In this document: one piece after another, positions 6,758 through 34,312 of the stretch | How the letters are laid out: the number at the start of each line of letters is the position of its first letter | Numbering within the stretch: the first letter of the stretch is position 1 | Sequence record: PP400778 | Reading direction: 5' to 3' (one strand) | DNA: 64,000 bases | From: Escherichia phage FL15 | Position numbers and translations under genes: made by a program | The notes under the pieces: model-generated | Database searches by the model: none | Seen by the model: only the letters and a program-made list of their open reading frames with translations | What the model was told of the DNA's origin: nothing

Positions 6758-7321
6758 TCATCCTCTTTTTGGAAAATTTAAATAAGCATACTCGCCAACT
6801 ATTTCATGTGCTGCACGGTCATAAGCCTTAGCCGCCTCAACTTCTGTCTCAAAGTATCCTAGATGTATATTCTTTCGATTGATAACAATATACGCCTTCC
6901 ACGGCTTTTTCTTGCTTGGTGATAATGATACACCTTTATATTTGCTATGGCAAGCCTTTTTCTTTGAGACGTTAAACTGATTTTGCTGTTCGGTTGCTTC
7001 TCTCATGTTTGACGGTCTATTGTTAGTTTTGTCTTGGTCTATGTGATCTATTCGTTCAACCTGAGTACCATACTCTAAAAACCAGACAACTCTATGTACA
7101 AACAGATTAAGTTTATGACCATTGTTGTAAAATGTAAAGTATAAATATCCTTCTTTATGGAGACATACCCTTACCACATCACCTTTTTTGTATATGGACC
7201 CTTCTTTTCGGAATCCAGCAGCTACAGAATCCTTTAAATGGTATAATATTCCATCGACATGATAGAATCTACCTTTTATCGCTTTCTGTGTCTCGATATC
7301 CCAAAATTTTGTTTTTGCCAC
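6758..7321 (-). CDS. free-standing HNH homing endonuclease with AP2 DNA-binding domain
   Basis: HNH motif (HRVVWFLEYG...IDHID.DK.NNRPSNMREAT) and AP2-like YKGVS...WKAYI...HLGYFETEVEAAKAYD; likely GTG start with GAGGTG SD; paralog at 30558-31121. Confidence 0.8.
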   Translation of the reverse strand: MAKTKFWDIETQKAIKGRFYHVDGILYHLKDSVAAGFRKEGSIYKKGDVVRVCLHKEGYLYFTFYNNGHKLNLFVHRVVWFLEYGTQVERIDHIDQDKTNNRPSNMREATEQQNQFNVSKKKACHSKYKGVSLSPSKKKPWKAYIVINRKNIHLGYFETEVEAAKAYDRAAHEIVGEYAYLNFPKRG

Positions 7322-7373: not shown

Positions 7374-10300
7374 ATGGCAGATTTTTCTCAACATTTCAAG
7401 GCCACATTTGGCTTTGACGCTGGTAATGAAAAGGTCGTCAATGTAGCATACGCAGATAAAAACACATCAACGGATGCGGTCAACGTTGAATTTTTCAATT
7501 ACCATAATGGTATTACTCAGTATGACACAACTCGCGGTTATGATCAATACGGCACTACAATCTATCAAAACCGTCCGTATTATGCAAAAGAAGATATCGC
7601 AAAACCAGCAGGTGACTTTGACCCGACTAAATGGCAAGCACTGCGCACGGACCCACGTTGGGATTATGTTGCAGCAACTTCCGGCGATACTCCTTTAAAG
7701 TCCGGTGACTATATCGCAGCGGACTGTCAGTTTGCAAACTTGACATTCTCAATGCCTACTAATCCGGTAGAGGGCGACACTATAACAGTAAAAGATATCG
7801 GTGGCAAGTGTGGTGTTAACGAATTATCGTTCTTGAGTACAGGACATGAGTTTTACCATAATGGTAATGTGTATAACAGAAAATGGTATTGCACTACCCC
7901 GTATGCAATGAACTATTTCATCTTTGTTCGGAATCGTTGGCATGTTTATCAGACAGGAACAGAGCCACGCGGTGTGTACGCACAGCCAGCGATTGATGCT
8001 ATTCAAATGCAGAATGGTGATCAGGTATTTCGTCGTAGTTCGTTGGGTAATATTACCTTAGTGCTTCCTAAGTTTGCCAACAATGGCGACATGATCCAGA
8101 CTACAGACCTTGACGGATTAACCGCAACCAACCACGTTACGGTTAAAGTTCATGAGCACGCAGAAGAACAATCAATTGGCACGTCCGGTCTAAAAGAGAT
8201 TATCGGTAAGCGTAGCGGTCATGGTGTATTCATCTTTGACAAGACGGAAAACTTATGGCGTTTGTGGGATGGTGATCAGTCTGTTCGTCTTAAACCGATC
8301 ATCAATGACACTCGCTTGCAACCTAATAGCTATGTTTCTGTATTTGGTGGTCGTGATGTTACTCTGACGCTGCCGACCAATGTCGAGCCGGGTGATCGTA
8401 TTCAAGTTTCTATGCAGTATATGCACGGAAACCAGACTTGCCGAATCATTACCTCAGAAGAGGATACAAAAATCCTTATGCAGAAAAACATGGTTCAGTT
8501 TCCTAAGCGTAGCGAGTACCCATTCAATGGGACCGATACATGGACTGGAGTGTCTGAATTGTCTTTCAACGCTGCAAATGATTATGTACCTTATCTGGAG
8601 TTCTCTTATTCAGAAGGTGATGATGGTAAGAAATACTGGTTGGTGGCACATGCTCACCCGATTGTAGAACGAGTAGATCCGACTCGTAAAGATCGTGTTG
8701 GTGTAATTGCACTGGCTACCCAGGATGAAACAAACAAAAACCATGAAGATAATCCTAGCGACGAAGTTGCGGTGACTCCAAAGGTTCTGGCTAACAAAAC
8801 AGCCAACGAAACTCGACGCGGTATTGCTCGCATTGCGACTCAAGCGGAAACGCATCAAGATACTGGTTCCAGCTTCCTGGATGATGTTATCGTTACGCCT
8901 AAAAAGTTAAATGATTGTGTTGCTACCGAAGCCCGTCGTGGTGTAATGGAAATTGCAACTCAACATGAAACCAACGAAGGTTTAGACGATACTCGCGCAA
9001 TAACTCCTAAGAAGTTAGAAGAACGTCGCGCTTCCGAAGATCTCGCTGGTATTGCTGAAATTGTTCAGGTTGGCGGTAGTGCTGCCGCTCGACGTGGCGA
9101 AGCTGGTACAGGGATCTATAACATCAATGACCATGCTAAAATTGTTACGCCACAAAACATCAACGAAGTCAAGGCGACCGAAACTTCCCGTGGTGTTGGG
9201 TATCTGGCAACTGACGCGGAAGTGCAAGGGGCTACAGAATCAACCCCGCAAGATGCTTTACTAATCACGACTCGCACGCTAACGAAACGTACTGCTACCG
9301 AATCGCGTACTGGTATCGCTGAAATTGCAACTCAGGAAGAAACAAACTTAGGTCAAAGTGATAACCATATCATCACGCCTAAAAAGCTGCATACTCGCCG
9401 CGCAACGGAAACTTTACATGGTTTAGCAGAAATTGCAACCCAACCGGAGTTTGACGCAGGTCGTGACGATGCTCGCATTTCTACCCCATTGAAGATTAAA
9501 ACCTTCTTTGAGAATGCACAGCGTTTGAAAGTAGACCCGACTCAGGGGCTTAACCTTACTGGTGATTTGTGGCAAGGTATCATGATCAGCGGTCTGGATG
9601 CAACCGAAGACACAAAAGGTGTCGCTAAAGTTGCTACTACTCAGCTTACGGATGCTGGTCAAGATGATACTACAATCATCACTCCTAAAAAGCTGCAAGG
9701 CAAAAAGGCCACCGAAGGTAAAGAAGGTATTATCCGAGTTGGTACTCAAGCCGAAACCGTGGCTGGTGCACTGGCTAATGTAGCAATTTCTCCGAAGAAC
9801 TTCAAATATGTTGTTCAGACAGAGGATACATGGAAAGCAACCGAAGCACGTCGTGGTTTCTTGAAAGTTGCTACTCAGGAAAACTGTTTTGTTGGTGATA
9901 ATCTGCAAGGTTCTACTCAAGAACTAGGAAACTACCAGCATGACGGAATTGCTGTTACTCCGAAAGGATTAAACTACGCACTTGCTAATTTCTTACCTAA
10001 GATGGCAACCGCTCAGAATAGTTTGAAATTGGGTAACGTAGAGGCCGCTAAATGGGCGCGTAGAGACATTGACCAAATCATAGAGAGCAATTACACGTTT
10101 AATAAAAAAGTTAACGTGAAGGGCGATTTAGAGTGCTTAAAATCAGGTTCCTTTGAAACTCTGTCTGTGACTAAGAACTCGACCGATGTTCCGAGTAATG
10201 GTCATCTGGTGTTGGGTGAGCGTGGAGTTGACGGTCACACCGGAATTACTCTGCATGGCACAACCGCATCGGAAGGCATGAAAAACTCTTGGTCTATTAT

Positions 10301-11114
10301 CGTTGGTGGTACTGGAACAGCGCAAGTTGTTGATAGTGATGCTATCGCTTTCGGTAAAATCAATGATGGTGGAGTCGTTGAGCATTACGCCTTTGCTATG
10401 AAACACAATGGCGACGCGACAGCATATAGAGACTTTATTGCAGGTCGTAACCTGTATGCGAAACAAGGCGGTTTATACATTGTTGACCAGTCTAATCCGG
10501 CAATGACTCGTTCCTCAGATGGTATGCTGAATATCGGTCACGGTGGAAGTGTTAACATCAAGGCAGGTCATCAAACGTTAACTACAGAGATCGCCGGACA
10601 GAAATATCAGATCGTACACGCAGGAAACGCTGACGAAGTTCTTAACCGTCAGTTTGTTAAGAATGCTGGCGATACAATGGTCGGTAAGCTGACTATGGAT
10701 AATGCGCCTATTGTTTCTGTTAAGCATGAAGCTAGCGCGGAAACCGCTCCGGCAATCGGTAACATCGGTTTCTGGAATATGCGAGTTACTACCCAGAACA
10801 TCAAAGAAACTTATCCAGAGAAGAAAAACGGTACTCTGATGCAATGGGGTACTGACGCGGACGGGCTTACCCAGCTTTGGTCCCCTGATGGTACTCATAA
10901 ACATTATATCCGTTCCGGTACTGGTGGTCAATGGACCGCATGGGGTGAAATTTACACCAAACAGAACAAGCCTACCGCTCAGGAAATTGGGGCAGTGGTT
11001 GCCGAAGGTGGTTTGATGAACTCTATGACGGTTCGTGATTGGATCAAAGTTGGTAATGTTAAAATCATCGCCAATAATCTGACTCGTACCGTAGACTTTA
11101 TCTGGGAAGACTAA
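7374..11114 (+). CDS. 34: long tail fibre proximal subunit gp34
   Basis: 1246 aa; N-terminus and repeated ETRRGIARIATQ / PKKL motifs match T4 gp34; C-terminal NVKIIAN...VDFIWED. Confidence 0.95.
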   Translation: MADFSQHFKATFGFDAGNEKVVNVAYADKNTSTDAVNVEFFNYHNGITQYDTTRGYDQYGTTIYQNRPYYAKEDIAKPAGDFDPTKWQALRTDPRWDYVAATSGDTPLKSGDYIAADCQFANLTFSMPTNPVEGDTITVKDIGGKCGVNELSFLSTGHEFYHNGNVYNRKWYCTTPYAMNYFIFVRNRWHVYQTGTEPRGVYAQPAIDAIQMQNGDQVFRRSSLGNITLVLPKFANNGDMIQTTDLDGLTATNHVTVKVHEHAEEQSIGTSGLKEIIGKRSGHGVFIFDKTENLWRLWDGDQSVRLKPIINDTRLQPNSYVSVFGGRDVTLTLPTNVEPGDRIQVSMQYMHGNQTCRIITSEEDTKILMQKNMVQFPKRSEYPFNGTDTWTGVSELSFNAANDYVPYLEFSYSEGDDGKKYWLVAHAHPIVERVDPTRKDRVGVIALATQDETNKNHEDNPSDEVAVTPKVLANKTANETRRGIARIATQAETHQDTGSSFLDDVIVTPKKLNDCVATEARRGVMEIATQHETNEGLDDTRAITPKKLEERRASEDLAGIAEIVQVGGSAAARRGEAGTGIYNINDHAKIVTPQNINEVKATETSRGVGYLATDAEVQGATESTPQDALLITTRTLTKRTATESRTGIAEIATQEETNLGQSDNHIITPKKLHTRRATETLHGLAEIATQPEFDAGRDDARISTPLKIKTFFENAQRLKVDPTQGLNLTGDLWQGIMISGLDATEDTKGVAKVATTQLTDAGQDDTTIITPKKLQGKKATEGKEGIIRVGTQAETVAGALANVAISPKNFKYVVQTEDTWKATEARRGFLKVATQENCFVGDNLQGSTQELGNYQHDGIAVTPKGLNYALANFLPKMATAQNSLKLGNVEAAKWARRDIDQIIESNYTFNKKVNVKGDLECLKSGSFETLSVTKNSTDVPSNGHLVLGERGVDGHTGITLHGTTASEGMKNSWSIIVGGTGTAQVVDSDAIAFGKINDGGVVEHYAFAMKHNGDATAYRDFIAGRNLYAKQGGLYIVDQSNPAMTRSSDGMLNIGHGGSVNIKAGHQTLTTEIAGQKYQIVHAGNADEVLNRQFVKNAGDTMVGKLTMDNAPIVSVKHEASAETAPAIGNIGFWNMRVTTQNIKETYPEKKNGTLMQWGTDADGLTQLWSPDGTHKHYIRSGTGGQWTAWGEIYTKQNKPTAQEIGAVVAEGGLMNSMTVRDWIKVGNVKIIANNLTRTVDFIWED

Positions 11115-11148: not shown

Positions 11149-12288
11149 ATGACACAAGAGATAGAATTACGCAACACTGGAATTAAGTTTGCGCATTTCG
11201 ACGAAGACTCCGCGACATTTACAAGCATTTCAGAAAACAACTCTGTGATGTATAAGCTGGAAGTGCGCGGATCTAATGCGGATTCTACCAAACCAGCAAG
11301 AATTAGATTTAATGGAGTGGAGATCGTTGGCGCTGGCTATGAAAATGGCCTAAATTTTAAAGTTCTTACTCCAACTGGACAACTACACGAAGAAAAGGTA
11401 TTCTATGGTCGCGGTGCTGTTTTGGCAATGCGTGATTATCTTTCTTTGCTGAAAGGTGACTATATCATTGCGATGGTAACGCATGGAGAATTGTTTGCAG
11501 ACCCGATAAGTGATGTTGTATTTTCTAAGATGGGATCTGTATCATTCCCGAATCACATTTTGTTACAGCAAATGCCTCGTGTATCCTATGCAGCAATTTA
11601 TTCTACTAAAATGGGCAAAATTGTGTGCGAAGGGATGCAAGCAACGAACGGGGAAGGTCAAGATTCGTCTATACAGATCGAGAAAGTTTATGATACTATA
11701 GACGATCTTGCAATAACAGGAACACCACAACGATTTTTAGATTATCCGGTTGAATATGTTAGCGAAGATGCCGAACATTTCGAGCTAATACAATGGCATC
11801 ATGATGAGATCAGCGCACCACTTGAAGATTTTAACATAAAGGCAGGTGACAAACTATCAATATCCTTTGAATTGTTCCGTGATAGTGCCGCAGCCGCAGC
11901 CAACGTAACAGCGCGTTTCTATCACAACTACTTCACCGATGGACAATATAAAACTGGCGTTCGTTATAATGCCATCCAGAAAGATCAATGGGAAAAGTTT
12001 GAAGCCGTCTATACAGTACCGGAAGGAGTTGATAGTGTTACCACTGGTTGTATCAGATATCCAACCAACTCCAACGAAGGTGTTGTTAAGGTTAGAAACA
12101 TACTAATAACGCCGATTAGTGGAGTCGTCAAAACTACTGGTCCTACTTCCTTTGGTGTTAACGGTATTAGAACAACTCACATTCAGGATAACGGCAATTT
12201 CGATAACCCTGTTATGAGTCTTCTTAAATTACCTAGAGACAATAAACATATCACATCCAACAACTTTAAAGAGTTCGATGTTGATTAA
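11149..12288 (+). CDS. 35: long tail fibre hinge protein gp35
   Basis: 379 aa ORF between gp34 and gp36 on the late strand; size and position match T4 gp35 (372 aa). Confidence 0.8.
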   Translation: MTQEIELRNTGIKFAHFDEDSATFTSISENNSVMYKLEVRGSNADSTKPARIRFNGVEIVGAGYENGLNFKVLTPTGQLHEEKVFYGRGAVLAMRDYLSLLKGDYIIAMVTHGELFADPISDVVFSKMGSVSFPNHILLQQMPRVSYAAIYSTKMGKIVCEGMQATNGEGQDSSIQIEKVYDTIDDLAITGTPQRFLDYPVEYVSEDAEHFELIQWHHDEISAPLEDFNIKAGDKLSISFELFRDSAAAAANVTARFYHNYFTDGQYKTGVRYNAIQKDQWEKFEAVYTVPEGVDSVTTGCIRYPTNSNEGVVKVRNILITPISGVVKTTGPTSFGVNGIRTTHIQDNGNFDNPVMSLLKLPRDNKHITSNNFKEFDVD

Positions 12289-12299
12289 CATTTTTAACA

Positions 12300-12328
12300 A
12301 GCCGATCCTCGTGGTCGGCTTTATTTTT
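12300..12328 (+). terminator. intrinsic terminator after gene 35
   Basis: Hairpin AGCCGATCC-TCGT-GGTCGGCT followed by TTATTTTTTA; the same stem recurs at 23316 and 61868. Confidence 0.7.
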
Positions 12329-12450: not shown

Positions 12451-12458
12451 TATAAATA
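12451..12458 (+). promoter_or_regulatory. T4-type late promoter core TATAAATA
   Basis: Exact TATAAATA about 34 nt upstream of the gene 36 start codon. Confidence 0.45.
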
Positions 12459-12491: not shown

Positions 12492-13982
12492 ATGGCAGAT
12501 TTGAAACATGGATCTACTGTAGGCGGATCTCCCATTTGGACGCAAGGAAACTTGACGATCCAACCAGCGGGCGATCAGCTTTTCTATAAAGGTCATAAAA
12601 TCTATACCGCTTTTGATAAACCTTCGGCTGCCGATTTTGATGCTGTTAGTGCATCTGAGGGTGGTACATTTCAGAAACTGGTCCATTTTGAGGAAGGTTT
12701 AAGCGTAGGTAGCGCATCCGGTGGAGAAACCAAAAAGAACGGGATCTTTAAAGGAAAGAGCGACGCTGCTAATTTTGACGGCGTAAGCTGGGGTTTGCAT
12801 TCATGGAAGTCAATCGGCTTTGTTAATGCCCGTGATGGCGTTATTATGGCGTATATTGACACCACAACGGGCGAATTTAAGTCTAAAGGGACTATCGAAG
12901 GGACAACCATTAAAGACACAGGTCAACGCGTCTATAGCCCTGTTAATAAACCAACGAATAATGATTTGGATTTAGTTTCCCGTCGCGGTGATACTCTCTC
13001 AGGAACGTATAATTTAAACACTGTCACTGTTAAACTATCGGTTGATTCGAAATTAATTGCAAGGGAACGTGATTTAATTAATTTTGATGCGACTAAGATC
13101 TATTATGGTAACGTTCTTGATACGTTGGTCTTCCGAAGTAAAGATGAGCCTACCATTTTTGTTAATGGCAAAGAAGGTCGTTTTTATCACACCAACAATA
13201 AACCGACTAAAGCCGATGTTGGACTAGGTAATGTCACCAATGATGCACAGGTTAAACGTGCTGGTGATATTATGGAAGGTAACTTGCAAGCTCCTAGAAT
13301 GTTGGCGACAAACGATCCTGCTGGTCCTAATGAATTGGTTCGTTTGAGCTACTTTGAGAAAAAATCAATGGTAGCAAATCCAACAATCATCGGAAACGTT
13401 GATTGGAACACTCTTATTAATCGCGGTATCTATCGTGTTGAAAATGCTGGGTCAGGTACTAATAAACCGTCTGATAGCTATTATAACGGCGTTTTGATGG
13501 TATATCGCCCAGAAGATGCGGTCGGTACTCGTCGAATTGTTCAGGTATACTATCCTGAATCTATTGATCATCCTATGTGCTGGCGTTCTTGTTCTAATGA
13601 ATCATGGACTGCATGGAACTATGTCGATCACCGTAAATTAGCCGATATTCGCTATGTTAACGTAACTGGCGATACCATGAGAGGTGCTTTGACAGTTCCC
13701 GCTGCAAACGGCGTTCGTACCGCAAAAGCTAACTATAATGGTGATAATTGCTACGCTGGACTTAATAGCTTAGATGGCACAGCAATGATTCATCGTGTTA
13801 GTGATATTAAAGCGCATGAGAAACTAGGCATCACACATGATTCTAAAATTATTTTCGTTAAATCACGCAACAATACTCAGGACACCGATACATTTGAATT
13901 ATACCACGAAGGGCATAAACCTACCCCTGCCGAAGTTGGCGCTGTTCCGCTTAATGCGGTAATTGATTTTGGTACTTTCTAA
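12492..13982 (+). CDS. 36: long tail fibre distal connector gp36 (enlarged, 496 aa)
   Basis: N-terminus MADLKHGSTVGGSPIWTQGN matches T4 gp36 (MADLKVGSTTGGSVIWHQGN); much longer than the 221-aa T4 protein. Confidence 0.8.
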   Translation: MADLKHGSTVGGSPIWTQGNLTIQPAGDQLFYKGHKIYTAFDKPSAADFDAVSASEGGTFQKLVHFEEGLSVGSASGGETKKNGIFKGKSDAANFDGVSWGLHSWKSIGFVNARDGVIMAYIDTTTGEFKSKGTIEGTTIKDTGQRVYSPVNKPTNNDLDLVSRRGDTLSGTYNLNTVTVKLSVDSKLIARERDLINFDATKIYYGNVLDTLVFRSKDEPTIFVNGKEGRFYHTNNKPTKADVGLGNVTNDAQVKRAGDIMEGNLQAPRMLATNDPAGPNELVRLSYFEKKSMVANPTIIGNVDWNTLINRGIYRVENAGSGTNKPSDSYYNGVLMVYRPEDAVGTRRIVQVYYPESIDHPMCWRSCSNESWTAWNYVDHRKLADIRYVNVTGDTMRGALTVPAANGVRTAKANYNGDNCYAGLNSLDGTAMIHRVSDIKAHEKLGITHDSKIIFVKSRNNTQDTDTFELYHEGHKPTPAEVGAVPLNAVIDFGTF

Positions 13983-13987
13983 TTCTA

Positions 13988-14010
13988 GCGGGGATTATCC
14001 CCGCTTTTCT
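13988..14010 (+). terminator. stem-loop / weak terminator after gene 36
   Basis: AGCGGGG-ATTAT-CCCCGCT hairpin followed by TTTT. Confidence 0.45.
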
Positions 14011-14049: not shown

Positions 14050-16809
14050 ATGGCAGATTTACAGAGAATCCAATTTAAAAGAACAAGTACGGCAGGTCGC
14101 AAGCCGGATGCGAATATTCTAACTCCGGGTGAACTTGCTATTAACCTAGCGGATCGAAAACTATATACAAAAGATGACAGCAATAATGTAATTACTTTGG
14201 GACACTTTCGCGGTGAGTTGCCATCTGATGCAAATTTAGATAATTATGGACCTACTGGTAAATTTACTGGCGTTTGGTCTAAATCAAGTTCAACAAATGC
14301 GCAGCCAGCAAATAAATTCCCAGAAGCGAATGCTGTAGGTGTATTAGAAGTATTTGTGGCTGGTCAATTTGCTGGCAGTCAGCGTTATACTGTTAGATCT
14401 GGTAACGTTTATATCCGTTCTTTGTCTGCGAAATGGAATGGTGTAGATGGTCCATGGGGTCCGTGGCTCAATATTCAAAATGGCACACGTCCACTATCAA
14501 CTACACTAGACTTGAATACTTTAGGTGATGCTTCTCATTTTGGGTTATGGCGAAATAGTTCAAGTTCCATTGCATCATTTTCTCGAAATTACCCAGAAGA
14601 AGGTGGTCTCGCGCAAGGTCTTTTAGAAATTTATGAAGGTGGTAACTATTCTTGCACGCAACGTTATACTACCCGAATGGGTGTTGTATATGTTCGTTGT
14701 CTTGCAGGTGCATGGGATCCAGAAGCTCCGAATTGGGGACCGTGGCAACAAGTAGGTATGGTTACTCCCAGCACATTCTATGACGGGGATCTTAATAATT
14801 TTCGTTCTCCTGGCTTGTATAACATTTTAGGGACTGATGCCGTTATTAACCGTCCAGTTGCAGAAGGTGTTCCGGTTGAGATGACCGGATTGCTTGAGGT
14901 TAAACAGCGTGCTTCCGGTGGCGCTATTTTCCAACGTTTCACTACCGCAGGAACGGGTGCAACTACGCGATCTCGCGTGTTTGAACGTGCAATGACAAAT
15001 AATATCTGGGGAAATTGGTACGAAGTATATACGTCCTATTCTATGCCAATTACTTTGGGTATGGGTGGTGTTAAAACTCAATTAGCGGAGCTAGATTGGC
15101 AAACATTTGATTTTGTTCCTGGTAGTATGTTTAGCGTTCCTTTGAACAAAATAAAGAACATGCCAGCAAATATGAATTGGGGTACGATTGACGGAGACTT
15201 GGTTATGTTTTCTGTCGGTCCTAGCGAACACACTGGCACAGGACGTACTGTTCAGGTTTGGCGTGGTACTGTATCCCAGACAAACTACCGTTATTTTGTC
15301 GTTCGTGTGTTCGGTAATTCTGGAAATAGAACTTGCACAGTTCGCCGTGTTGTTCTTGAAGATGGATCACATACTTGGACTGCTCAACAAAACTTTAGGG
15401 GATTGTTGAATATCACTGCTGCTGTTAATCTTGGTGCTAATCAGAAAATTTCACTTGCTCCAGGAGCATATATTCAAGCCCCTGCTAGCGGTTCTGGTTC
15501 TAATACTTACGCGAATCAGAATACTACCATTGCACCATTATATCAGGCCATTGACGATTCAAATAAAAACCAGTTTGCGCCAATTGTTAAACAGAAAAAC
15601 ACTGTAACAAATATTACTATGGCTTCTGGTATGGATATTGCTAGTTCAGAATATCGTATCGTTGCTCAGGGTGATTTATCCGCTACTGGAACTACAGCCA
15701 CTGAATTAGCTACATGGCGTTTCTTGCCGTCTGGCCGATTCATGTCACAAAGCCGAGTTTATGCTGGCGCAGCATTCTTGAACACTGATGGTAACATTGC
15801 TGGTTCAATCTGGAAGAAATACAACGATGCAACCAATTTAGATGCTGCCTTGAATACTCGCCTAGGTAAAGGCGGTGATACGATGACAGGTCGGTTAACA
15901 ATCAATGCACCTAATGATTCTATCGTATTATCAACAACTGCTAGTAATTCTTTGCATATTCGCGGTGACATAGACGGGACTGGTAACTGGTATATTGGCA
16001 AGGGTGGTGCTGATAATGGATTAGCGTTCTATAGTTATGCTACTAATGCTGCTGTAAACATTACAAACGCGGGGGATATCGCTCTAAGTCCAAAAGGCAT
16101 CGAAATGACTCATGTCAATAACGTTCGATTCTATGTTCATGGTGAACGTTGGACTGCTAGCCAATCTGGAGGTTGGAACGACCAATGGGGATTAGAAGCT
16201 CCGATATTTGTTGACCACGGCTATGTTGGACCAGACAGTTATTATCCGATTATCAAAGGAAGAAGTTTAATCACCAATCAAGGATATACAACTGCCGTCG
16301 ATTTTGGTCTACGTCGTGTCCCTAACAATTGGGGGCAAGCAATTATTCGTGTTGGATCTGCGGAAAACTCGCCAGCGGCTGGTCATCCTCAAGCTGTATT
16401 CGAGTTCCATCATGATGGTACTTTCTATTCTCCAGGTAATGGTAACTTTAACGATGTGTATATTCGTTCCGATGGTCGTCTTAAGATTAATAAAAAAGAG
16501 CTAGAAAACGGAGCACTTGAAAAAGTATGTCGACTGAAAGTTTATATTTACGATAAAGTTAAGTCTATTAAAGACCGTAGTGTTATTAAACGTGAAGTTG
16601 GTATTATTGCTCAGGACCTTGAAAAGGAATTACCGGAAGCTGTATCTAAAGTTGAAGTTGATGGATCTGATGTTCTGACAATTTCTAACTCTGCAGTGAA
16701 TGCTCTTTTAATTAAGGCTATTCAGGAAATGAGTGAAGAAATTAAAGAATTGAAAACGCCTCTCTTTACTAAAATTGCTCGCAAAATTAGTAAATATTTT
16801 AAATTCTAA
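14050..16809 (+). CDS. 37: long tail fibre distal subunit gp37 with C-terminal intramolecular chaperone domain
   Basis: 919 aa; N-terminus MADLQRIQFKRTSTAGRKPDANILTPGELAINLADRKLYTKDDS matches gp37; C-terminal ~100 aa (GIIAQDLEKELPEAV...ISNSAVNALLIKAIQE) resembles S74-type intramolecular chaperone. Confidence 0.9.
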   Translation: MADLQRIQFKRTSTAGRKPDANILTPGELAINLADRKLYTKDDSNNVITLGHFRGELPSDANLDNYGPTGKFTGVWSKSSSTNAQPANKFPEANAVGVLEVFVAGQFAGSQRYTVRSGNVYIRSLSAKWNGVDGPWGPWLNIQNGTRPLSTTLDLNTLGDASHFGLWRNSSSSIASFSRNYPEEGGLAQGLLEIYEGGNYSCTQRYTTRMGVVYVRCLAGAWDPEAPNWGPWQQVGMVTPSTFYDGDLNNFRSPGLYNILGTDAVINRPVAEGVPVEMTGLLEVKQRASGGAIFQRFTTAGTGATTRSRVFERAMTNNIWGNWYEVYTSYSMPITLGMGGVKTQLAELDWQTFDFVPGSMFSVPLNKIKNMPANMNWGTIDGDLVMFSVGPSEHTGTGRTVQVWRGTVSQTNYRYFVVRVFGNSGNRTCTVRRVVLEDGSHTWTAQQNFRGLLNITAAVNLGANQKISLAPGAYIQAPASGSGSNTYANQNTTIAPLYQAIDDSNKNQFAPIVKQKNTVTNITMASGMDIASSEYRIVAQGDLSATGTTATELATWRFLPSGRFMSQSRVYAGAAFLNTDGNIAGSIWKKYNDATNLDAALNTRLGKGGDTMTGRLTINAPNDSIVLSTTASNSLHIRGDIDGTGNWYIGKGGADNGLAFYSYATNAAVNITNAGDIALSPKGIEMTHVNNVRFYVHGERWTASQSGGWNDQWGLEAPIFVDHGYVGPDSYYPIIKGRSLITNQGYTTAVDFGLRRVPNNWGQAIIRVGSAENSPAAGHPQAVFEFHHDGTFYSPGNGNFNDVYIRSDGRLKINKKELENGALEKVCRLKVYIYDKVKSIKDRSVIKREVGIIAQDLEKELPEAVSKVEVDGSDVLTISNSAVNALLIKAIQEMSEEIKELKTPLFTKIARKISKYFKF

Positions 16810-16813
16810 CAAC

Positions 16814-16832
16814 AAGGGGCTTTGCCCCCTTT
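16814..16832 (+). terminator. stem-loop after gene 37
   Basis: AAGGGGC-TTTG-CCCCCTT hairpin; weak U-run. Confidence 0.3.
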
Positions 16833-16844
16833 GGAGTATAAATT

Positions 16845-17627
16845 ATGGCAGTAGTTGGAGTTCCTGGCTGGATTGGAAGTTCAGCCGTAAATGAAACGGG
16901 TCAGCGCTGGATGAGTCAAGCGGCTGGTCAATTAAGATTGGGTGTTCCTTGCTGGATGAGTCAATTTTCAGGTCGCTCGCGAGAAATTATTCACACGCTT
17001 GGCGCAGACCATAACTTCAATGGTCAGTGGTTCCGTGATAGATGCTTTGAGGCAGGTAATGCACCTATAGTGTTTAATATTACCGGTGATTTAGTATCAT
17101 ATTCTAAAGATGTTCCTTTATTCTTCATGTACGGAGATACACCAAATGAATATGTTCAGTTGAATATACATGGCGTAACGATGTATGGTCGTGGCGGGAA
17201 TGGCGGTAGCAATGGTCCTGGATCAGCCGGGGGGCATTGTATTCAAAATGATATTGGTGGGAGACTAAGAATTAATAATGGTGGAGCTATTGCAGGTGGC
17301 GGTGGCGGTGGCGGTGGCGGGTATTATTCTCCTTTTTCACAAATGAGATTAACCTTTGGCGGTGGCGGTGGGCGTCCGTTTGGTGCGCCCGGCGGATCTA
17401 TTGATATGCAATCAGGCGCAACTGCTGGTACTCTTTATGCGCCCGGATCGGGGTCCGTGAACGGTGTCTATAATGGCGGAAGCGGTGGTGAGGTAGGTGC
17501 TGCGGGAGGTAGATGTAATATTCGTGGTCAAGGATCTGAATATAATGGCGGCGATTCTGGATATGCTGTTATAGGGTCTTCTCCAACGTGGCAAAATCGC
17601 GGAGCTATTTACGGACCGGCTGTTTAG
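16845..17627 (+). CDS. 38: T2-type receptor-binding adhesin gp38 (glycine-rich motifs)
   Basis: 260 aa; N-terminus [15 protein letters not shown] and multiple poly-Gly islands separating variable segments are the T2/T6-type gp38 architecture. Confidence 0.85.
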
Positions 17628-17690: not shown

Positions 17691-17930
17691 ATGGTCTATA
17701 ATATCGTCATTGGTGCTTTGTCTAATTTCGGAATGAAACTATTGTCAAAGTTAATTAGTGAAAAGATGCTCACTAAAATTTTCTTCTATTGCGCTCGTCG
17801 TCTTGCGTCTTATACCAATACGCCAATTGATGATCGTTTTGTGGAAGAACTTTATAAGGAGTTTAATAAAGATCAGTCAGAAGATAGCAACGAGCAAGAT
17901 AAACCTAGTGATAGTCAACTACCTAAATAA
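17691..17930 (+). CDS. hypothetical small protein with hydrophobic N-terminus and acidic C-terminus
   Basis: 79-aa ORF with AAGGAG SD on the late strand between gp38 and holin t; no counterpart at this position in the T4 map as I recall it. Confidence 0.55.
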   Translation: MVYNIVIGALSNFGMKLLSKLISEKMLTKIFFYCARRLASYTNTPIDDRFVEELYKEFNKDQSEDSNEQDKPSDSQLPK

Positions 17931-17963: not shown

Positions 17964-18620
17964 ATGCAAGTTTCTGAAAAAGGGAAAGACTTTGCTATCT
18001 CAAATGTCCTGCGCGCTATTTTCACAACTAAAAGCACGGAGTTGCTCGTACTTCGTGTTTTTGCTGCCGTCGTGTTGTCCATATTGGCATTTGTCGTTTA
18101 TAGTAAAAACGAGTTATTTGCGCTTTATAAAGAGACTCGTTATGAGACTTATGCTCACATTCTCCAGGTAGAGAAAGACCGCAATTTTGATAATGCAGCA
18201 CAGGAGCAGTTACAGATAGTTCATGTGTCGGCTGATGCCGATTTTTCTGCTGTTTTTAGTTTTCGTCCGAAAAACCTAAACTATTTTGTTGATTTGGTGG
18301 CATATGAAGGAAAGCTACCGCATACAATCGATGAAAAAAATTTAGGCGGATTCCCTATCAATAAAACGAGTGAAGAATATCGTAGGCATCTTTTAGGTAA
18401 ATCATATTTTACCGATAAAGATTTCCAGTATATTCCATCAAGAGAAAAGAAATTAGAGAGTATCGATATAGGGTTTATGTATTCTTGTCCTATATTCAAT
18501 CTCGATAATGTCTATTCTGGTAGTATCGCCATTTCATGGAAGAATAAACCGGATATTGACATTGAGAATTTAGATACTCTTTGCAATCAATCTGCCAGAA
18601 TCCTCGGAAGGATTAGATAA
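17964..18620 (+). CDS. t: holin t
   Basis: 218 aa; matches T4 holin (LEQLQIVH.S.DADFSAV.SFRPKNLNYFVD..AYEGKLP, MYSCP.FNLDN.Y.G.I, ARILGR). Confidence 0.95.
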   Translation: MQVSEKGKDFAISNVLRAIFTTKSTELLVLRVFAAVVLSILAFVVYSKNELFALYKETRYETYAHILQVEKDRNFDNAAQEQLQIVHVSADADFSAVFSFRPKNLNYFVDLVAYEGKLPHTIDEKNLGGFPINKTSEEYRRHLLGKSYFTDKDFQYIPSREKKLESIDIGFMYSCPIFNLDNVYSGSIAISWKNKPDIDIENLDTLCNQSARILGRIR

Positions 18621-18626: not shown

Positions 18627-18659
18627 GGGGAAGCCTTTCGGCCTCCCCTTCTTTTTATT
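18627..18659. terminator. intrinsic terminator at the convergence of the late (+) and early (-) blocks
   Basis: Hairpin GGGGAAGCC-TTTC-GGCCTCCCC followed by TTCTTTTTATT on the plus strand. Confidence 0.65.
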
Positions 18660-18903
18660 GGGGCATAGAAGCCCCTGAATCACATTTTGACGCTGTATGA
18701 TGAAAACAGGTAGCGTACCAGTCATCTGCTTGTTTGTCTTCGTCAGAAAACGCGTAATTTCGTTGTGTGCCGTTTTCTACTTTGACCAGTGCAATAGCTG
18801 TTTCTGGAAGATCAATCAGTCGGACAAAATCACCATCTTCCCACTCTACACGAGCAATATCATATCCCATCTCAAAGTATACAATCGCTTGTTCTAATTT
18901 CAT
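18655..18903 (-). CDS. small protein, possibly DUF2829-like
   Basis: 82 aa; start ATG overlaps upstream stop (ATGA coupling); pattern A..Y...G..IAR.EW...................DDW resembles DUF2829 as I remember it. Confidence 0.5.
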   Translation of the reverse strand: MKLEQAIVYFEMGYDIARVEWEDGDFVRLIDLPETAIALVKVENGTQRNYAFSDEDKQADDWYATCFHHTASKCDSGASMPQ

Positions 18904-19223
18904 TCTGGAAACTTCCCGTAAACATTCTCTGCCAGCTTACGTGCATCTTTTACAATATCTTTCATGTAATGACTATAATTTTTAGCTAGATCAATGATGC
19001 AATCAACAAAGAAGTAATAGCGTCGCAGTGCTACCAGCTCAACATCTTCAAGATGACCATTTTCTCCAATCGCTGAAATATGTTTAAATTCCTTTCGGAT
19101 CGCGTCCATCGCTACATTAACTTCTTTTATAATATCTTTCGTATTATATGCACCTCGACTAATCAAAATTTTGGTTAGGTCTTCTGCTTTTTCGTGAAAG
19201 TTGTCAATTTCAAACTCGATCAT
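18900..19223 (-). CDS. hypothetical protein (paralog of 19338-19670)
   Basis: 107-aa ORF; C-terminal ...KDARKLAENVYGKF aligns with ...DEARIMTENIFGKF of the neighbour. Confidence 0.55.
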   Translation of the reverse strand: MIEFEIDNFHEKAEDLTKILISRGAYNTKDIIKEVNVAMDAIRKEFKHISAIGENGHLEDVELVALRRYYFFVDCIIDLAKNYSHYMKDIVKDARKLAENVYGKFPE

Positions 19224-19337
19224 AATCACCTCTCATAATTTCACTCTGTTGTGTCAACATTTTTTCGTGGTTTGCTAATTCTATACCTTGTAATAGCATA
19301 ACCAGTGCAATTTTCAATGATTCATCATCTTTCATAA

Positions 19338-19670
19338 TCAAAATTTACCGAAAATATTCTCTGTCATAATTCTTGCTTCGTCGATTATTTTCGTCATGTT
19401 CATGGTGTAGTTATGATCATTTAGTGCCTTAATGACAACGAGCAAGGAATCTAAAAACACTCGATACCGGGTATATTCTACGCTATTTGTGAATACCGAT
19501 GTTTTCTCTACTTTATCGATCAGATAGCCTAAAGCCGATAGCGCCTCGTTTACTTCCCTTGTTACTTTATCGGCGCTAAACAACACCGGATAAAGACGCG
19601 GTGTGATTAACCGCGCTGCCTCTTTCAATTCGGTAGCTTTCCATGATTCATATTTGTCATAGTTAAACAT
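19338..19670 (-). CDS. hypothetical protein (paralog of 18900-19223)
   Basis: 110-aa ORF with AAGGAG SD; shares C-terminal half with the neighbouring gene. Confidence 0.55.
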   Translation of the reverse strand: MFNYDKYESWKATELKEAARLITPRLYPVLFSADKVTREVNEALSALGYLIDKVEKTSVFTNSVEYTRYRVFLDSLLVVIKALNDHNYTMNMTKIIDEARIMTENIFGKF

Positions 19671-19682
19671 TGTATAATCTCC

Positions 19683-20015
19683 TTACAGATGAAAACCTGT
19701 TACGATCACCGCATCGATCATACCGCTAGGAATAAACGGTTCGCCCTCTTTTATTTCAACTTTGAATTGATGCCATTTCGCTAATACTTCTTCCGGTACA
19801 CCCAGCGATTCGGCGTCTGCTTTAGTTTCATCCATAATCCAACTAGGCTGCATGAGAGCATAGTTTACATAGTCCATTTCTGGGGTCATGTCATCAATGT
19901 TAATATATTTGCAGTTGACGCGTTTCAGAATTTCAAATTCTTTATTGTCAACCTGTACCATGTATAATTCAGTAGTTTCTGGAATCAGTTCCCACACAAT
20001 CAGTACATTTTTCAT
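19683..20015 (-). CDS. hypothetical protein
   Basis: 110-aa ORF, tightly packed in the early-gene run. Confidence 0.5.
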   Translation of the reverse strand: MKNVLIVWELIPETTELYMVQVDNKEFEILKRVNCKYINIDDMTPEMDYVNYALMQPSWIMDETKADAESLGVPEEVLAKWHQFKVEIKEGEPFIPSGMIDAVIVTGFHL

Positions 20016-20023
20016 AGTTCACC

Positions 20024-20392
20024 TCACTTAACAAAGATTTTCTTTAATGCTTTCAGGATCGTTGCTTCCGGTGCTTCTTCCGGTGGAGGAAGCAATTCTA
20101 CCACTTCCTCTTCCAACTCGATATAGTCTACCAGATATTCTACATAGAATGCAAGTGCTTCCATGAAATTAGATGCTACATCCGATTCACCACAAGCGCC
20201 TACATGCATTGTATAAACATCACTGCGATCAAGTTTGTGGATGCTTCCCAGATAGTTTCGGTTATACCAGACTTCCCACACTTTCAGCTTTCCGGTTTTG
20301 GTTGCTGTTTTATAATCGGTTTCGTAATGATGCAATTGACGTTGCAAATCATTGATAATAACACATTTTTCGTAATTGTTTTGAATTTCCAT
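20024..20392 (-). CDS. hypothetical protein
   Basis: 122-aa ORF with GAGGA SD. Confidence 0.5.
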   Translation of the reverse strand: MEIQNNYEKCVIINDLQRQLHHYETDYKTATKTGKLKVWEVWYNRNYLGSIHKLDRSDVYTMHVGACGESDVASNFMEALAFYVEYLVDYIELEEEVVELLPPPEEAPEATILKALKKIFVK

Positions 20393-20402
20393 GATGTAAT
20401 CC

Positions 20403-20594
20403 TCACTTATCGTTAAGAAGTTCTAAAACTTTCTGTCGTACTTTGTCAATATTAGTTGATTCAAAAACTGTACGGTATCCCCAGCTTTGACCGTATGATC
20501 GCGAGCAATCCCCATATCCCCATTGTTCAACCTGATAGTATTCAAGGAATGGGTGCTGCCGAACTATGATACCATCGCGATTAAAAATTACCAT
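20403..20594 (-). CDS. hypothetical small protein
   Basis: 63-aa ORF with GAGGA SD. Confidence 0.45.
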   Translation of the reverse strand: MVIFNRDGIIVRQHPFLEYYQVEQWGYGDCSRSYGQSWGYRTVFESTNIDKVRQKVLELLNDK

Positions 20595-20617
20595 AATATA
20601 ATCCTCACGTCAACAAC

Positions 20618-20905
20618 TTATTTTCGGTTGTGGTCACGATATGTTTTAAAATATCCCTCGTACCACGGTAAAATATCTGGATTTTTACCACTATACAGAC
20701 CTTTAACCATCATGTCAATAAGGCCATCTGGTGTTTGATAGTTTCCAGCTTTTATAAGCTCTCTGATTAAAATCTCTCTGTATATGTCTTTCGGATCTTC
20801 GTAATCAACTTGTATTGTGGTTGTTGTCTCGCTTAATTTGGTTTCTGGAGTATCTTGCATCGCCTTCCACCAATCTTTTGTAATCTTCATGTTATTGAAT
20901 TGCAT
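20618..20905 (-). CDS. hypothetical protein
   Basis: 95-aa ORF. Confidence 0.45.
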   Translation of the reverse strand: MQFNNMKITKDWWKAMQDTPETKLSETTTTIQVDYEDPKDIYREILIRELIKAGNYQTPDGLIDMMVKGLYSGKNPDILPWYEGYFKTYRDHNRK

Positions 20906-20916: not shown

Positions 20917-21675
20917 TTACTTGCAAACGTATTGATCTACATCAATTGCTCCACCGAATGTAGGATGACGTTTTTCAAATCGAATAGTTCCGTCGTTTGG
21001 TTCGAAAACGGAGTATTCATATAGATCTTTCTTGCCAACATTCTTATAAAACCCGCCTTTAGTCATAACGGTTTCTTGTACGTTTGCTTTGTGTACGTTG
21101 TATTCATCAATGTATACAAAATCAACCATCTTCCCATTTTTAATGGTTACTTTAAGATCCCCTGGCTGGTTTCCATATTTTGCATACAGTGGAGCCTCTT
21201 TAATTTTTGTGGAAATTCCATCTTTCATACTCCACTCATAACGAACGGTGCATTGATAGGTAAAAGTTTCGACCTTCGGTTCTTCTACCACTTTTGCTTC
21301 CTGTTTCGGTTGTTCTTCTTCAACCTTCGCAGAAGTCTCTGAATCGCTTTCTGACGCGGTTTCTTCTTTAGGTAATACATTCATCAAGTTTTGGATTTGA
21401 GCGTTATATACAGCCTCCAGTGGCTGAATCTGCCCGATATTGATCATTGTATCACGAACAGTTTTATTCCAGTTTCGTTGCTCTTGTTTCAGAGACGGAT
21501 CAATCTTAACAGCCTTAACATACACCTCATGAAGTTTAGAGTCCAGTGCGGAGATAGACTCATTAGCACAAATAAACTTCTCTGATTTGGTAGTAGCTTT
21601 AGCGCAATCAAAGGACGCAGCGTTAGCACCGAAAGCAGTAGCAGAAAGAACGATAGCAGCGATAATGTTTTTCAT
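20917..21675 (-). CDS. secreted protein with N-terminal LprI-like (DUF1311) domain
   Basis: 252 aa; signal peptide MKNIIAAIVLSATAFGANA; then C-x10-E-x2-IC...LDSKLHEVY matching the DUF1311 Cys/Leu/Tyr pattern; Glu/Lys-rich linker; C-terminal domain unknown. Confidence 0.6.
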   Translation of the reverse strand: MKNIIAAIVLSATAFGANAASFDCAKATTKSEKFICANESISALDSKLHEVYVKAVKIDPSLKQEQRNWNKTVRDTMINIGQIQPLEAVYNAQIQNLMNVLPKEETASESDSETSAKVEEEQPKQEAKVVEEPKVETFTYQCTVRYEWSMKDGISTKIKEAPLYAKYGNQPGDLKVTIKNGKMVDFVYIDEYNVHKANVQETVMTKGGFYKNVGKKDLYEYSVFEPNDGTIRFEKRHPTFGGAIDVDQYVCK

Positions 21676-29928: not shown

Positions 29929-30123
29929 TTATACATTTTCAATCACCCATTGCAGATGGGCTTCTGCGTCAACCAGTTCAGCGCGGCTTTTCTCTAAGCA
30001 CTTGCTGTATTCTTTACGTTCCCAATCAGCAATTTTGTTTTTCAGGACTTCTTCATAGTAAGCAATTACGCCTTTCAGGTCTGAAACTTTACGGCTTGCC
30101 AATTCGATGTAATGGTTACGCAT
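29929..30123 (-). CDS. hypothetical small protein
   Basis: 64-aa ORF with leader TTAGGAGAATCAAAAT. Confidence 0.5.
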   Translation of the reverse strand: MRNHYIELASRKVSDLKGVIAYYEEVLKNKIADWERKEYSKCLEKSRAELVDAEAHLQWVIENV

Positions 30124-30155
30124 TTTGATTCTCCTAAGTGGTATCTCGTTTCGAT

Positions 30156-30191
30156 GGGGACATTATGATATATCCCCGATCCAGTGTCAAC
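30156..30191 (-). promoter_or_regulatory. early promoter cassette with palindrome (PeSL-like)
   Basis: Minus strand TTGACA (30185-30190), 17-nt spacer, CATAAT; palindrome GGGGATATATCATAATGTCCCC encloses the -10. Confidence 0.5.
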
Positions 30192-30199
30192 AACTTTTT

Positions 30200-30499
30200 T
30201 TAATCTTTTTTCAGTGCGTCCATTACTCGCTCTGCGATCAGTTCTCGTAAGCACTGATAACCATGATATTTGATGGCAATGTCACGCAGATCATTAACCA
30301 GTTCCCGTACTTCATGGTCTTTCAGATCGTCTCTGTATTTCGATTTAATCGTATCTTTAGGTGGATTGCGGATAACCTGAAAACCTTGTTCTGCAATCAC
30401 TGCGGCTTCTCGCTGGCGTTCATGCTGTACTGTATTTTTGATCAGGTCTACTTCCATGAACTTTGTCATACTCATCATCATGTTATTCTTTTTGATCAT
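30200..30499 (-). CDS. hypothetical protein
   Basis: 99-aa ORF with GAGGA SD. Confidence 0.5.
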   Translation of the reverse strand: MIKKNNMMMSMTKFMEVDLIKNTVQHERQREAAVIAEQGFQVIRNPPKDTIKSKYRDDLKDHEVRELVNDLRDIAIKYHGYQCLRELIAERVMDALKKD

Positions 30500-30533
30500 T
30501 ATTCAATCCTCATAAAAGAAAAGGGAGACTCCC

Positions 30534-30561
30534 ATTATAGAGAATCTCCCTTGTATGTCAA
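30534..30561 (-). promoter_or_regulatory. sigma70-type early promoter (TTGACA-16-TATAAT)
   Basis: Minus strand TTGACA (30556-30561) and TATAAT (30534-30539) with GGGAGA...TCTCCC inverted repeats around the -10. Confidence 0.5.
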
Positions 30562-31121
30562 CTAAAATTTAAAGATGCAAACTCCCCGTGATGAATTTTT
30601 GCATATTCATCATATGCTCTAGCGGCTTCCTCCTGAGTAGCAAACGATCCTATGTATTTTCTGTATCCGTTTATCCTTATTTGTGCTTGCCACGGTCTTT
30701 TGCTAGATCCTTTGCGATGAGTAACACCATTATATATGCTCGTGCACCCGTCCATTTTCTTTTTATTGTACATGTTTTGTTGTTGTGTTGCCTCCCGTAA
30801 ATTTGGTGGATTGTTGTTTTCTGGATTCCCGTCTATGTGGTCTATTACCTTAACCTGTGTTCCATATTCAAGAAACCAGACAATTCTATGTACAAGATAT
30901 GTAGATGTTCTCTTTTTAACCTTATTGTAAACATCTATTGCCAAATGACCGTAATTTAACTTTTTTGTTTTTACTTTATCACCGACTCGGTAGAAATATC
31001 CCTCTGGTAGACCATTAAAAGACGGACTATTTGTTTTGTGATATAGAACACCTTCCGTGTGTTCAAATCTGCGTTTTAATTCCTCTTGAATTTCAGTATT
31101 CCAAAATTTCGCACTTTTCAT
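30558..31121 (-). CDS. free-standing HNH homing endonuclease with AP2 domain (paralog of 6758-7321)
   Basis: 187 aa; LVHRIVWFLEYGTQVKVIDHIDGNPENNNPPNLREATQQQN and YNGVTH...WQAQIRINGYRKYIGSFATQEEAARAYD; begins 1 nt after the gp39 stop. Confidence 0.8.
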   Translation of the reverse strand: MKSAKFWNTEIQEELKRRFEHTEGVLYHKTNSPSFNGLPEGYFYRVGDKVKTKKLNYGHLAIDVYNKVKKRTSTYLVHRIVWFLEYGTQVKVIDHIDGNPENNNPPNLREATQQQNMYNKKKMDGCTSIYNGVTHRKGSSKRPWQAQIRINGYRKYIGSFATQEEAARAYDEYAKIHHGEFASLNFS

Positions 31122-31122
31122 A

Positions 31123-32946: not shown

Positions 32947-33045
32947 TATTAAACCTCTTCATAACATAACCATAACTTACTGCAACCGCCACAAAGACGG
33001 CTGCAACAATCATATTAAAAATTGAGTGATTGTCAAGTATATGAC

Positions 33046-33219
33046 TCATGACACGCGCACATTTTTATCATAGTACCCGCCATTAATCCCGCGCGGGGCA
33101 GTCAATCCCTGTTTGCATTCTTTACCGCATTCAGGGCATTCTGCCTTTTCACGCTCGGAAATTTTGCGGATTTTCTGAAATTGACCGTGTTCTTCACAAG
33201 AATAATCGTATAATGGCAT
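33046..33219 (-). CDS. FmdB-family zinc-ribbon protein
   Basis: 57 aa from ATG 33219: MPLYDYSCEEHGQF...CPECGK with two CxxC pairs; AAGGGG SD. Confidence 0.6.
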   Translation of the reverse strand: MPLYDYSCEEHGQFQKIRKISEREKAECPECGKECKQGLTAPRGINGGYYDKNVRVS

Positions 33220-33220
33220 A

Positions 33221-33889: not shown

Positions 33890-33890
33890 T

Positions 33891-34133
33891 TTAAATATCC
33901 TCCGCGATATGCCGGAACAACTCCAGATCGTTTTTATCCAGAATGAAACCGCTACAATCAATAATCCCGTTACCGTAATTATCGGTTAACAGTCGTTCCG
34001 TTGCCATGTATGCGCGTACTTTGTTGTTAAAATTCATTACATGTTGTGCATAGTCACAATGAATCTTTTGACGGTTCCACGCGACAATTGATTGTAGATG
34101 TATTACATTAGCCACATTATCAATAACAACCAT
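33891..34133 (-). CDS. hypothetical protein
   Basis: 80-aa ORF abutting dexA. Confidence 0.45.
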   Translation of the reverse strand: MVVIDNVANVIHLQSIVAWNRQKIHCDYAQHVMNFNNKVRAYMATERLLTDNYGNGIIDCSGFILDKNDLELFRHIAEDI

Positions 34134-34134
34134 A

Positions 34135-34302: not shown

Positions 34303-34312
34303 AATAATTTCC

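Follow-up and report, generated by a model that had tools for sequence, protein, structure and literature searches.

The segment 14050-17627 of Escherichia phage FL15 (sequence record PP400778), within a 64,000-nucleotide (nt) stretch of DNA analysed as a whole and called the window below, consists exactly of the genes for gp37 and gp38, and we are highly confident that it specifies the host-recognition end of a Krischvirus long tail fibre, built from a chaperone-cleaved gp37 and a Tsx-binding gp38. Lutz et al. (2025, npj Viruses; PMC12032242) describe five Krischvirus isolates, FL15 among them, and the backbone of FL15 is that of the genus, positions 30000-50000 of the window being 98.3-98.5 % identical to the genomes of LF73P4, kvi and JSE. 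The translated products of genes 36, 37 and 38 match XAO14304.1, XAO14305.1 and XAO14306.1 of FL15 exactly; they are labelled 'tail connector protein', 'hypothetical protein' and 'adhesin protein', respectively, in GenBank, where neither the chaperone domain of gp37 nor its mosaic ancestry is annotated. The open reading frames (ORFs), the domains, the conservation of catalytic and docking residues, the identity of the FL15 proteins and the mosaic ancestry were computed here; the Tsx dependence of FL15, the auto-cleavage and docking geometry of the S16 fibre and the role of the hypervariable loops are carried over from the literature. The module, its cleavage site, the architecture of the adhesin and the receptor are already on record for FL15 or close relatives, and as a discovery the module matters little. 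Its use lies in annotation: what is deposited as a 'hypothetical protein' is clearly the distal subunit of the fibre and bears a Peptidase_S74 chaperone.

The assignment of gp37 rests in the first place on its C-terminus. Residues 807-865 match Peptidase_S74 (PF13884, "chaperone of endosialidase"; E = 5.2e-11; 43.1 bits, cut-off 22) over positions 1-57 of the 58 in the profile; this score, like those of the gp38 families below, is well above anything that chance would give. The domain makes up the last 113 of the 919 residues of gp37 and lies downstream of the trimerisation region; a preliminary description had placed a self-cleaving type of intramolecular chaperone of about 100 residues here, which is borne out at the slightly greater length. 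The Pfam match opens with the motif S807-D-G-R-L-K812 (S-D-x-R-x-K), which includes both residues of the Ser-Lys dyad; by analogy with the endosialidase chaperones, S807 and K812 are taken to be the catalytic pair. In an alignment of the last 139 residues of seven gp37 proteins (FL15, RB14, T6, T2, kvi, RB49 and S16) S807, D808, R810 and K812 are invariant, and the catalytic residues of the chaperone are thus present in FL15. Further invariant columns fall in a G..AQ motif, an LP motif and a later AL..A motif. A profile built from this alignment and run against solved structures retrieves S16 gp37 (6F45_A, 2.6e-54), the tail fibre 8JOV (9e-09), the auto-processing domain of MYRF (7DC3, 3e-07) and the released neck-appendage chaperone of GA-1 (3GUD, 5e-03). 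The first residue of the 3GUD chain, the Ser of SDERHK, aligns with S807.

Published work on related fibres points to where the chain would be cut. S16 gp37 is auto-cleaved at DLNVS^SDRRIKK, where the caret marks the scissile bond, and loses 113 residues (Salem et al. 2021, PMC7917993); the fPS fibres of the genus Tequatrovirus carry DVYIR^SDGRLKI, with cleavage after the Arg predicted by alignment with the S16 site (PMC7917993). For the RB49-like phages a gp37 with a self-cleaving chaperone and a gp38 cap has been stated (PMC9569957). FL15 gp37 reads NDVYIR^SDGRLKINK at the predicted site and shares the DVYIR^SDGRLKI of the fPS fibres. By analogy, the protein is predicted to be cut between R806 and S807, auto-cleavage following trimerisation, and processing would turn the 100.3-kDa precursor into a mature chain of 87.5 kDa and a chaperone of 12.8 kDa. 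Processing of the C-terminus of T2 gp37 was reportedly described by Drexler, Riede and Henning in 1986.

Directly 3' of the chaperone-ending gene 37, 35 nt past its stop codon, begins the gene for gp38. The only families matched by this protein in the Pfam scan are those of adhesins, namely GP38 (PF05268; E = 2.2e-70, 237.4 bits) and Gp38_N (PF21721; E = 2.1e-20, 72.9 bits), each with a cut-off of 25, and it also matches PHROG 2056 (E = 3.5e-110). From end to end the protein can be aligned with the gp38 crystal structure of S16 (6F45_D, E = 6.6e-47) and with the receptor-binding domain of PP01 gp38 (9V85, E = 2e-77). W9, W22 and W37, all within the N-terminal attachment domain, are invariant across an alignment of nine adhesins that includes S16. 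In the S16 protein the tryptophans sit at the apices of three N-terminal helices and are inserted into pockets of the gp37 trimer (PMC6851490). As far as sequence allows, the position of gp38 at the fibre tip is upheld by the retention of these three residues and of the alternation of glycine-rich and hypervariable segments, and by the full-length alignment with 6F45_D.

Glycine accounts for 63 of the 260 residues of gp38 (24 %), with twelve runs of at least two, including G9 at 151-159 and G5 at 172-176. In the nine-adhesin alignment the glycine columns are invariant, and the segments between them differ sharply among the T6-type proteins, kvi, T2 and S16; residues ~115-244 are predicted, from the alignments with 6F45_D and 9V85, to fold as a polyglycine-II sandwich with Tsx-binding loops. 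FL15 gp38 is 98 % identical to the proteins of FL04 and KMB43, 94 % to RB14, 93 % to WilhelmHis, 89 % to T6, 86 % to kvi, 51 % to T2 and 45-50 % to S16, and its loop region is near the segments of T6, RB14 and WilhelmHis. Relative to FL04 there are five changes (V15A, S42A, N73S, A74T and V206I), only V206I being in the loop region. The preliminary description had called this protein a T2-type tip adhesin with a poly-Gly and variable-segment architecture: the architecture stands, but alignment with characterised adhesins places the protein with the T6/RB14 type (89-94 % identity, as against 51 % to T2), and by its sequence it is a member of that Tsx-specific subgroup, not T2-type in the narrow sense.

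The receptor, which adsorption to outer-membrane mutants had been proposed to reveal, has in fact been published for FL15. Lutz et al. spotted their phages on deletion mutants of MG1655 and reported that FL04, FL15, FL23 and FL44 "recognized ... Tsx as the receptor" (PMC12032242); FL15 is listed there with the phages for which the tsx mutant was the only one to abolish plating or lower it by over 3 logs (PMC12032242). WilhelmHis (Bas35) likewise needs tsx, confirmed by complementation (PMC8594841), and T6, RB14 and RB5, all with T6-like adhesins, use Tsx (PMC3157838). FL20, a close relative of FL15, has OmpA as its receptor. We propose a course of events that opens with late transcription of genes 36, 37 and 38, for which the TATAAATA box at 12451 is the probable promoter, and gp37 would be made as a 100-kDa precursor. 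The 113-residue Peptidase_S74 domain would then drive trimerisation and folding of the shaft before cutting itself off at R806/S807 by means of S807 and K812, baring a flat trimeric tip that ends in DVYIR. One gp38 monomer would plug this tip through its N-terminal three-helix domain and W9, W22 and W37, and the loops of its polyglycine-II sandwich would face the cell and bind the nucleoside channel Tsx.

The body of gp37 that carries this tip is a mosaic. Over its length the protein matches PHROG 1699, 'long tail fiber protein distal subunit' (E = 3.9e-164); identity reaches 79.5 % with RB14 gp37 and 75 % with KMB43 gp37, and at 90 % identity the protein forms a cluster of its own. The N-terminal adaptor, presumed to join gp36, is a version particular to a Krischvirus sub-lineage and common to KMB43 and FL04; it is fused at HFRGELP to a body of the T6/RB14 type, and the gp37 proteins of RB14 and T6 have 63 more residues at the N-terminus. 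Behind the adaptor lies a tandem duplication of a domain of ~85 amino acids (aa) (local alignment score 154, z = 29.9 against shuffles), and residues 72-296 match PHROG 4618. A third segment, residues 241-335, looks similar, yet it is without significant sequence relation to the duplicated pair. The trimerisation region matches PF20744 gp37_trimer (E = 8.6e-06; 26.1 bits, cut-off 21.7).

At the nucleotide level blastn finds Krischvirus-type sequence up to ~14177-14212 and again from 17637, and between these, 14212-17617 aligns with Tequatrovirus RB14 at 88.3 %, almost gap-free. A finer picture is given by comparing sliding 300-nt windows, the last of them ending at 17499, with KMB43, FL04, RB14, WilhelmHis and T6. 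At 14050-14349 identity is 99 % to KMB43 and FL04 and ~70 % to RB14 and T6, and 14050-15100 as a whole is 97-99 % identical to KMB43. From 15100 to 15550 the sequence is 99.3-99.7 % identical to RB14 and from 15400 to 16000 it is 98.7-100 % identical to WilhelmHis, with KMB43, FL04 and T6 at just ~40 % over ~15400-15850. Positions 16000-16450 reach 70-85 % to all of the scanned relatives, but 96 % to MIZ4 and MIZ5. The chaperone domain and the N-terminus of gp38 (16450-17050) are 94-99 % identical to all but T6 (87-93 %), and 17050-17499 returns to 97-98 % identity with KMB43 and FL04. A megablast search with 15100-16050 returned 191 records, of which a single one is named Krischvirus; among the matches listed, the best are coliphage genomes of 160-170 kb, headed by Paracelsus at 98.1 %.

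These patterns indicate recent recombination between members of Krischvirus and Tequatrovirus at gp37, because tracts that are 99-100 % identical to Tequatrovirus sit in a Krischvirus backbone. Krischvirus DNA contains plain cytosine and Tequatrovirus DNA glucosylated hydroxymethylcytosine; tracts of such identity on both sides of this difference in modification would therefore point to recent co-infection and recombination across the divide. Recombinational shuffling at the long-tail-fibre locus is already well documented (PMC3157838), and the fine-scale mosaic of gp37, the sole addition of the present analysis, refines the known picture and does not change it. FL15 offers an example of a portable host-range cassette, in which a T6-type gp37 body and gp38 have been grafted onto a Krischvirus gp36/gp37 adaptor, with junctions at gp37 codons ~45-55 and just past the stop codon of gp38. 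The near-identical tracts indicate that the two genera have exchanged DNA recently and still do, which is of relevance to engineered fibre swaps for phage therapy.

The partner protein gp36 belongs to the Krischvirus side of this junction. It matches PHROG 16472, 'tail fiber protein', over residues 1-496 of 496, and phrog_1425, 'hinge connector ... distal connector' (E = 3e-54), and the Pfam Phage_T4_gp36 match is weak and below the cut-off. Its length had been singled out as unusual against the 221 aa of T4; it is indeed longer than the T4 protein, but 496 aa is also the length in RB49, kvi, FL04 and KMB43, to which it is 94-98 % identical, and the long gp36 is therefore a genus trait, the standard Krischvirus length, and no peculiarity of FL15. 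Against the gp36 proteins of T6, RB14 and S16 (216-221 aa) only residues 1-78 and 251-294 align. Sequence searches of gp36 against PDB chains gave chance-level matches only (E >= 0.25), and an AlphaFold2 single-sequence prediction was unusable (mean pLDDT 28.9, pTM 0.16). A recognisable copy of the domain duplicated in gp37 was considered for the long gp36 and rejected: tested as further copies, gp36 286-385 and gp37 241-335 give z values of -0.7 to 2.9, which are not significant, and a Pfam scan of both segments at E <= 10 returned nothing meaningful.

Other readings of the module have to be set against this one. In T4 the gene 38 that occupies the same position encodes an assembly chaperone (PMC6851490, PMC12892980), and it could be argued that FL15 gp38 likewise does no more than assist folding and then departs from the fibre, with the C-terminus of gp37 binding the receptor. 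We regard this as extremely improbable, since gp38 matches PF05268 and PF21721 (E = 2e-70 and 2e-20) as well as the solved adhesins 6F45_D and 9V85, and a cleavable Peptidase_S74 domain forms the end of gp37; when gp37 was searched against PDB sequences (E <= 0.01), 6F45_A was the only match and the needle tip of T4 gp37 was not among the results. Also at odds with the alignments is the notion that the chaperone domain persists as a vestige which no longer cuts and aids folding only, gp38 being attached elsewhere. Conservation of all of S807, D808, R810 and K812 and the exact coincidence of the aligned Ser with the start of the released 3GUD chain speak against it, and we consider it very unlikely.

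More weight attaches to the possibility that a second receptor, be it the core of the lipopolysaccharide (LPS), an O-antigen or OmpA, adds to the host range through gp38 or through lateral domains of gp37 or gp36. Several observations weigh here against a host range governed by Tsx alone. The published result for FL15 is an efficiency of plating on a deletion mutant, as distinct from a direct binding assay, and is compatible with a co-receptor. A few loop changes can add specificities: PST, with a T6-like adhesin, depends on and also recognises OmpA and LPS (PMC3157838), and fPS-65, again T6-like, needs the inner-core heptoses of LPS in Yersinia (PMC7917993), its gp38 being 94.6 % identical to that of FL15. 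In RB49-like phages gp38 can provide for recognition of O-antigens and OmpA (PMC9569957), phages with identical Gp38 differ in their ECOR infection patterns (PMC12032242), and the duplicated domains of gp37 are globular-looking. Against a second receptor, the tsx mutant alone abolishes or greatly reduces plating of FL15 (PMC12032242), the work on O-antigen binding concerned an RB49-type gp38 encoded by another gene at a displaced locus (PMC3157838), and differing infection patterns may also stem from post-adsorption defences. On balance we hold a second receptor to be possible, though improbable. A related proposal, that host range is not set by the gp38 loops alone and that lateral, low-affinity glycan-binding sites help the fibre to pass or exploit the O-antigen before gp38 meets Tsx, appears to us decidedly doubtful; such sites could lie in gp37 56-240, in the imported shaft (~350-650) or in the 275 extra residues of gp36. 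If it were true, the 99-100 % tracts shared with Tequatrovirus would represent adaptive shuffling of secondary specificities and not neutral mosaicism.

The reading of the segment as a chaperone-cleaved gp37 capped by a Tsx-binding gp38 can be placed among named systems. T6, RB14, RB5 and WilhelmHis have gp38 proteins of 89-94 % identity, near-identical hypervariable segments and Tsx as common receptor. RB14 and WilhelmHis also have gp37 proteins 78-80 % identical over the full length and share the 99-100 % nucleotide tracts, and the DVYIR^SDxRLK site and the chaperone domain of the T6/RB14-type cassette are the same as in FL15. The Tequatrovirus cassette differs in its genus backbone, the first 51 residues of FL15 gp37 being of Krischvirus type and the protein 63 residues shorter at this end; furthermore, its partner gp36 has 216 aa as opposed to 496, and FL15 has an additional Dc5-like ORF between gene 38 and holin t. 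Salmonella phage S16 (6F45) has the trimeric gp37, the 113-residue chaperone and the single gp38 cap, features predicted for FL15 from its sequence, and the S16 gp38 architecture of tryptophan prongs, beta-helix and polyglycine-II sandwich is predicted likewise. Identity between the two phages is no higher than 45-50 % in gp38 and 27-31 % in the chaperone region, the S16 cleavage context is DLNVS^SD in place of DVYIR^SD, and the receptor is OmpC (PMC12892980).

T2 belongs to the same class of adhesin-capped fibres, and its gp37 ends in NVYIR-SDIRLK followed by a chaperone domain. It differs from FL15 in that its gp38 is 51 % identical with unrelated hypervariable segments, its gp37 is far longer (a gene of 4026 nt) and its receptors are FadL and OmpF (PMC8594841, PMC3157838). 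RB49, the type Krischvirus, has the same gp34, gp35, gp36, Dc5 and holin at 92-98 % nucleotide identity, and its gp37 ends in a chaperone domain that is 65 % identical over 128 aa; the gp37 bodies of the two phages are, in contrast, unrelated, and in RB49 (NC_005066, 8718-11939) gp37, of 979 aa, is followed directly by dc5 and t with no gene 38 between. The g38 homologue of RB49 is displaced to a distant locus (PMC3157838), and members of Krischvirus thus differ in the position of the adhesin gene. In FL15 a tblastn search of the 64-kb window found the single gp38 homologue described here and no second one comparable to the displaced g38 of RB49. Beyond the T-even-like fibres, the Peptidase_S74 chaperones of endosialidases, GA-1 (3GUD) and MYRF (7DC3) have in common the S-D-x-R-x-K motif, cleavage N-terminal to the Ser and a C-terminal position on a trimeric fibre or beta-helix, but they are distant in sequence (profile E = 3e-07 to 5e-03) and attached to other passenger domains.

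Signals for the expression of the module lie upstream of it. T4-type late-promoter boxes with the exact sequence TATAAATA occur just twice in the window, fewer than in shuffled sequence (mean 5.7), and both are 5' of tail-fibre genes, gp34 and gp36. By analogy with T4 late promoters, the box at 12451 is the probable start of a late transcript of genes 36, 37 and 38. A GC-rich hairpin followed by UUUU in the gp36-gp37 intergenic region folds better than all of 200 shuffles (z = -4.2) and looks like a terminator or an RNA-stabilising stem-loop; a further terminator-like hairpin lies 3' of gp35 at 12299-12321. Hairpins after gp37 and gp38 were rejected as terminators, being no better than shuffles (z = -1.0 and +0.8), and among the hairpins behind the three genes only the post-gp36 one stands out. 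Because of this placement of boxes and hairpins, genes 36, 37 and 38 probably form a single late unit. The coordinates of these and the other features are collected in Table 1.

Table 1 Features of the FL15 window at and around the long-tail-fibre genes
Feature	Position	Strand	Size, residues or basis
T4-type late-promoter box TATAAATA	7140-7147	+	upstream of gp34
gp34	7374-11114	+	1246 aa (ORF list)
gp35	11149-12288	+	379 aa (ORF list)
T4-type late-promoter box TATAAATA	12451-12458	+	34 nt upstream of gp36 start
gp36, proximal part of distal half-fibre	12492-13982	+	496 aa (ORF list)
GC-rich hairpin then UUUU, 36-37 intergenic	13987-14005	+	minimum free energy -14.3 kcal/mol
gp37, distal long-tail-fibre subunit precursor	14050-16809	+	919 aa, 100.3 kDa
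gp37 N-terminal adaptor	14050-14202	+	residues 1-51; alignment, Krischvirus sub-lineage version
gp37 tandem duplicated domains (two)	14215-14769	+	residues 56-140 and 146-240; local alignment
gp37 shaft segment, Tequatrovirus origin	15100-16000	+	300-nt window identity, megablast
gp37 trimerisation region	15937-16110	+	residues 630-687; Pfam PF20744 gp37_trimer
gp37 D802-V-Y-I-R806 codons	16453-16467	+	last strand of mature gp37, predicted gp38 docking surface
gp37 intramolecular chaperone	16468-16806	+	S807-F919, 113 aa, 12.8 kDa; Pfam Peptidase_S74
gp38, monomeric tip adhesin	16845-17627	+	260 aa, 26.4 kDa
gp38 N-terminal attachment domain	16845-16967	+	residues 1-41, W9/W22/W37; Pfam Gp38_N
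gp38 glycine-rich motif / hypervariable segment region	17187-17576	+	residues ~115-244; Gly runs, alignment
Dc5-like ORF	17691-17930	+	79 aa, between gp38 and holin gene
Holin t	17964-18620	+	Pfam Phage_holin_T match

The module is part of a co-oriented block on the + strand which, in the ORF list, runs from gp34 through gp35, gp36, gp37, gp38 and the 79-aa ORF to holin t. The product of the 79-aa ORF is 96 % identical to RB49 Dc5, matches PHROG 402 (unknown function) and has a hydrophobic N-terminus and an acidic tail; dc5 fills the usual g38 slot in RB49, and both gp38 and the Dc5-like ORF are present in FL15. An NCBIfam scan of gp36, gp37, gp38 and Dc5 gave zero family matches. Residues 66-133 of gp35 show a weak, sub-threshold match to Pfam ILEI (E = 0.0011; 19.8 bits, cut-off 27). 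Downstream of the holin gene, a series of small leftward ORFs (63-122 aa) occupies 18655-20905 on the - strand, among them an adjoining pair of 110 aa each at 19338-19670 and 19683-20015, and all of them are labelled hypothetical in related Krischvirus genomes. Beyond these, at 20917-21675 on the same strand, lies an ORF of 252 aa with a signal-peptide-like N-terminus (MKNIIAAIVLSATAFGANA) and a centre rich in Lys and Glu; its product is conserved under the label 'hypothetical protein' in KMB43, kvi and RB49.

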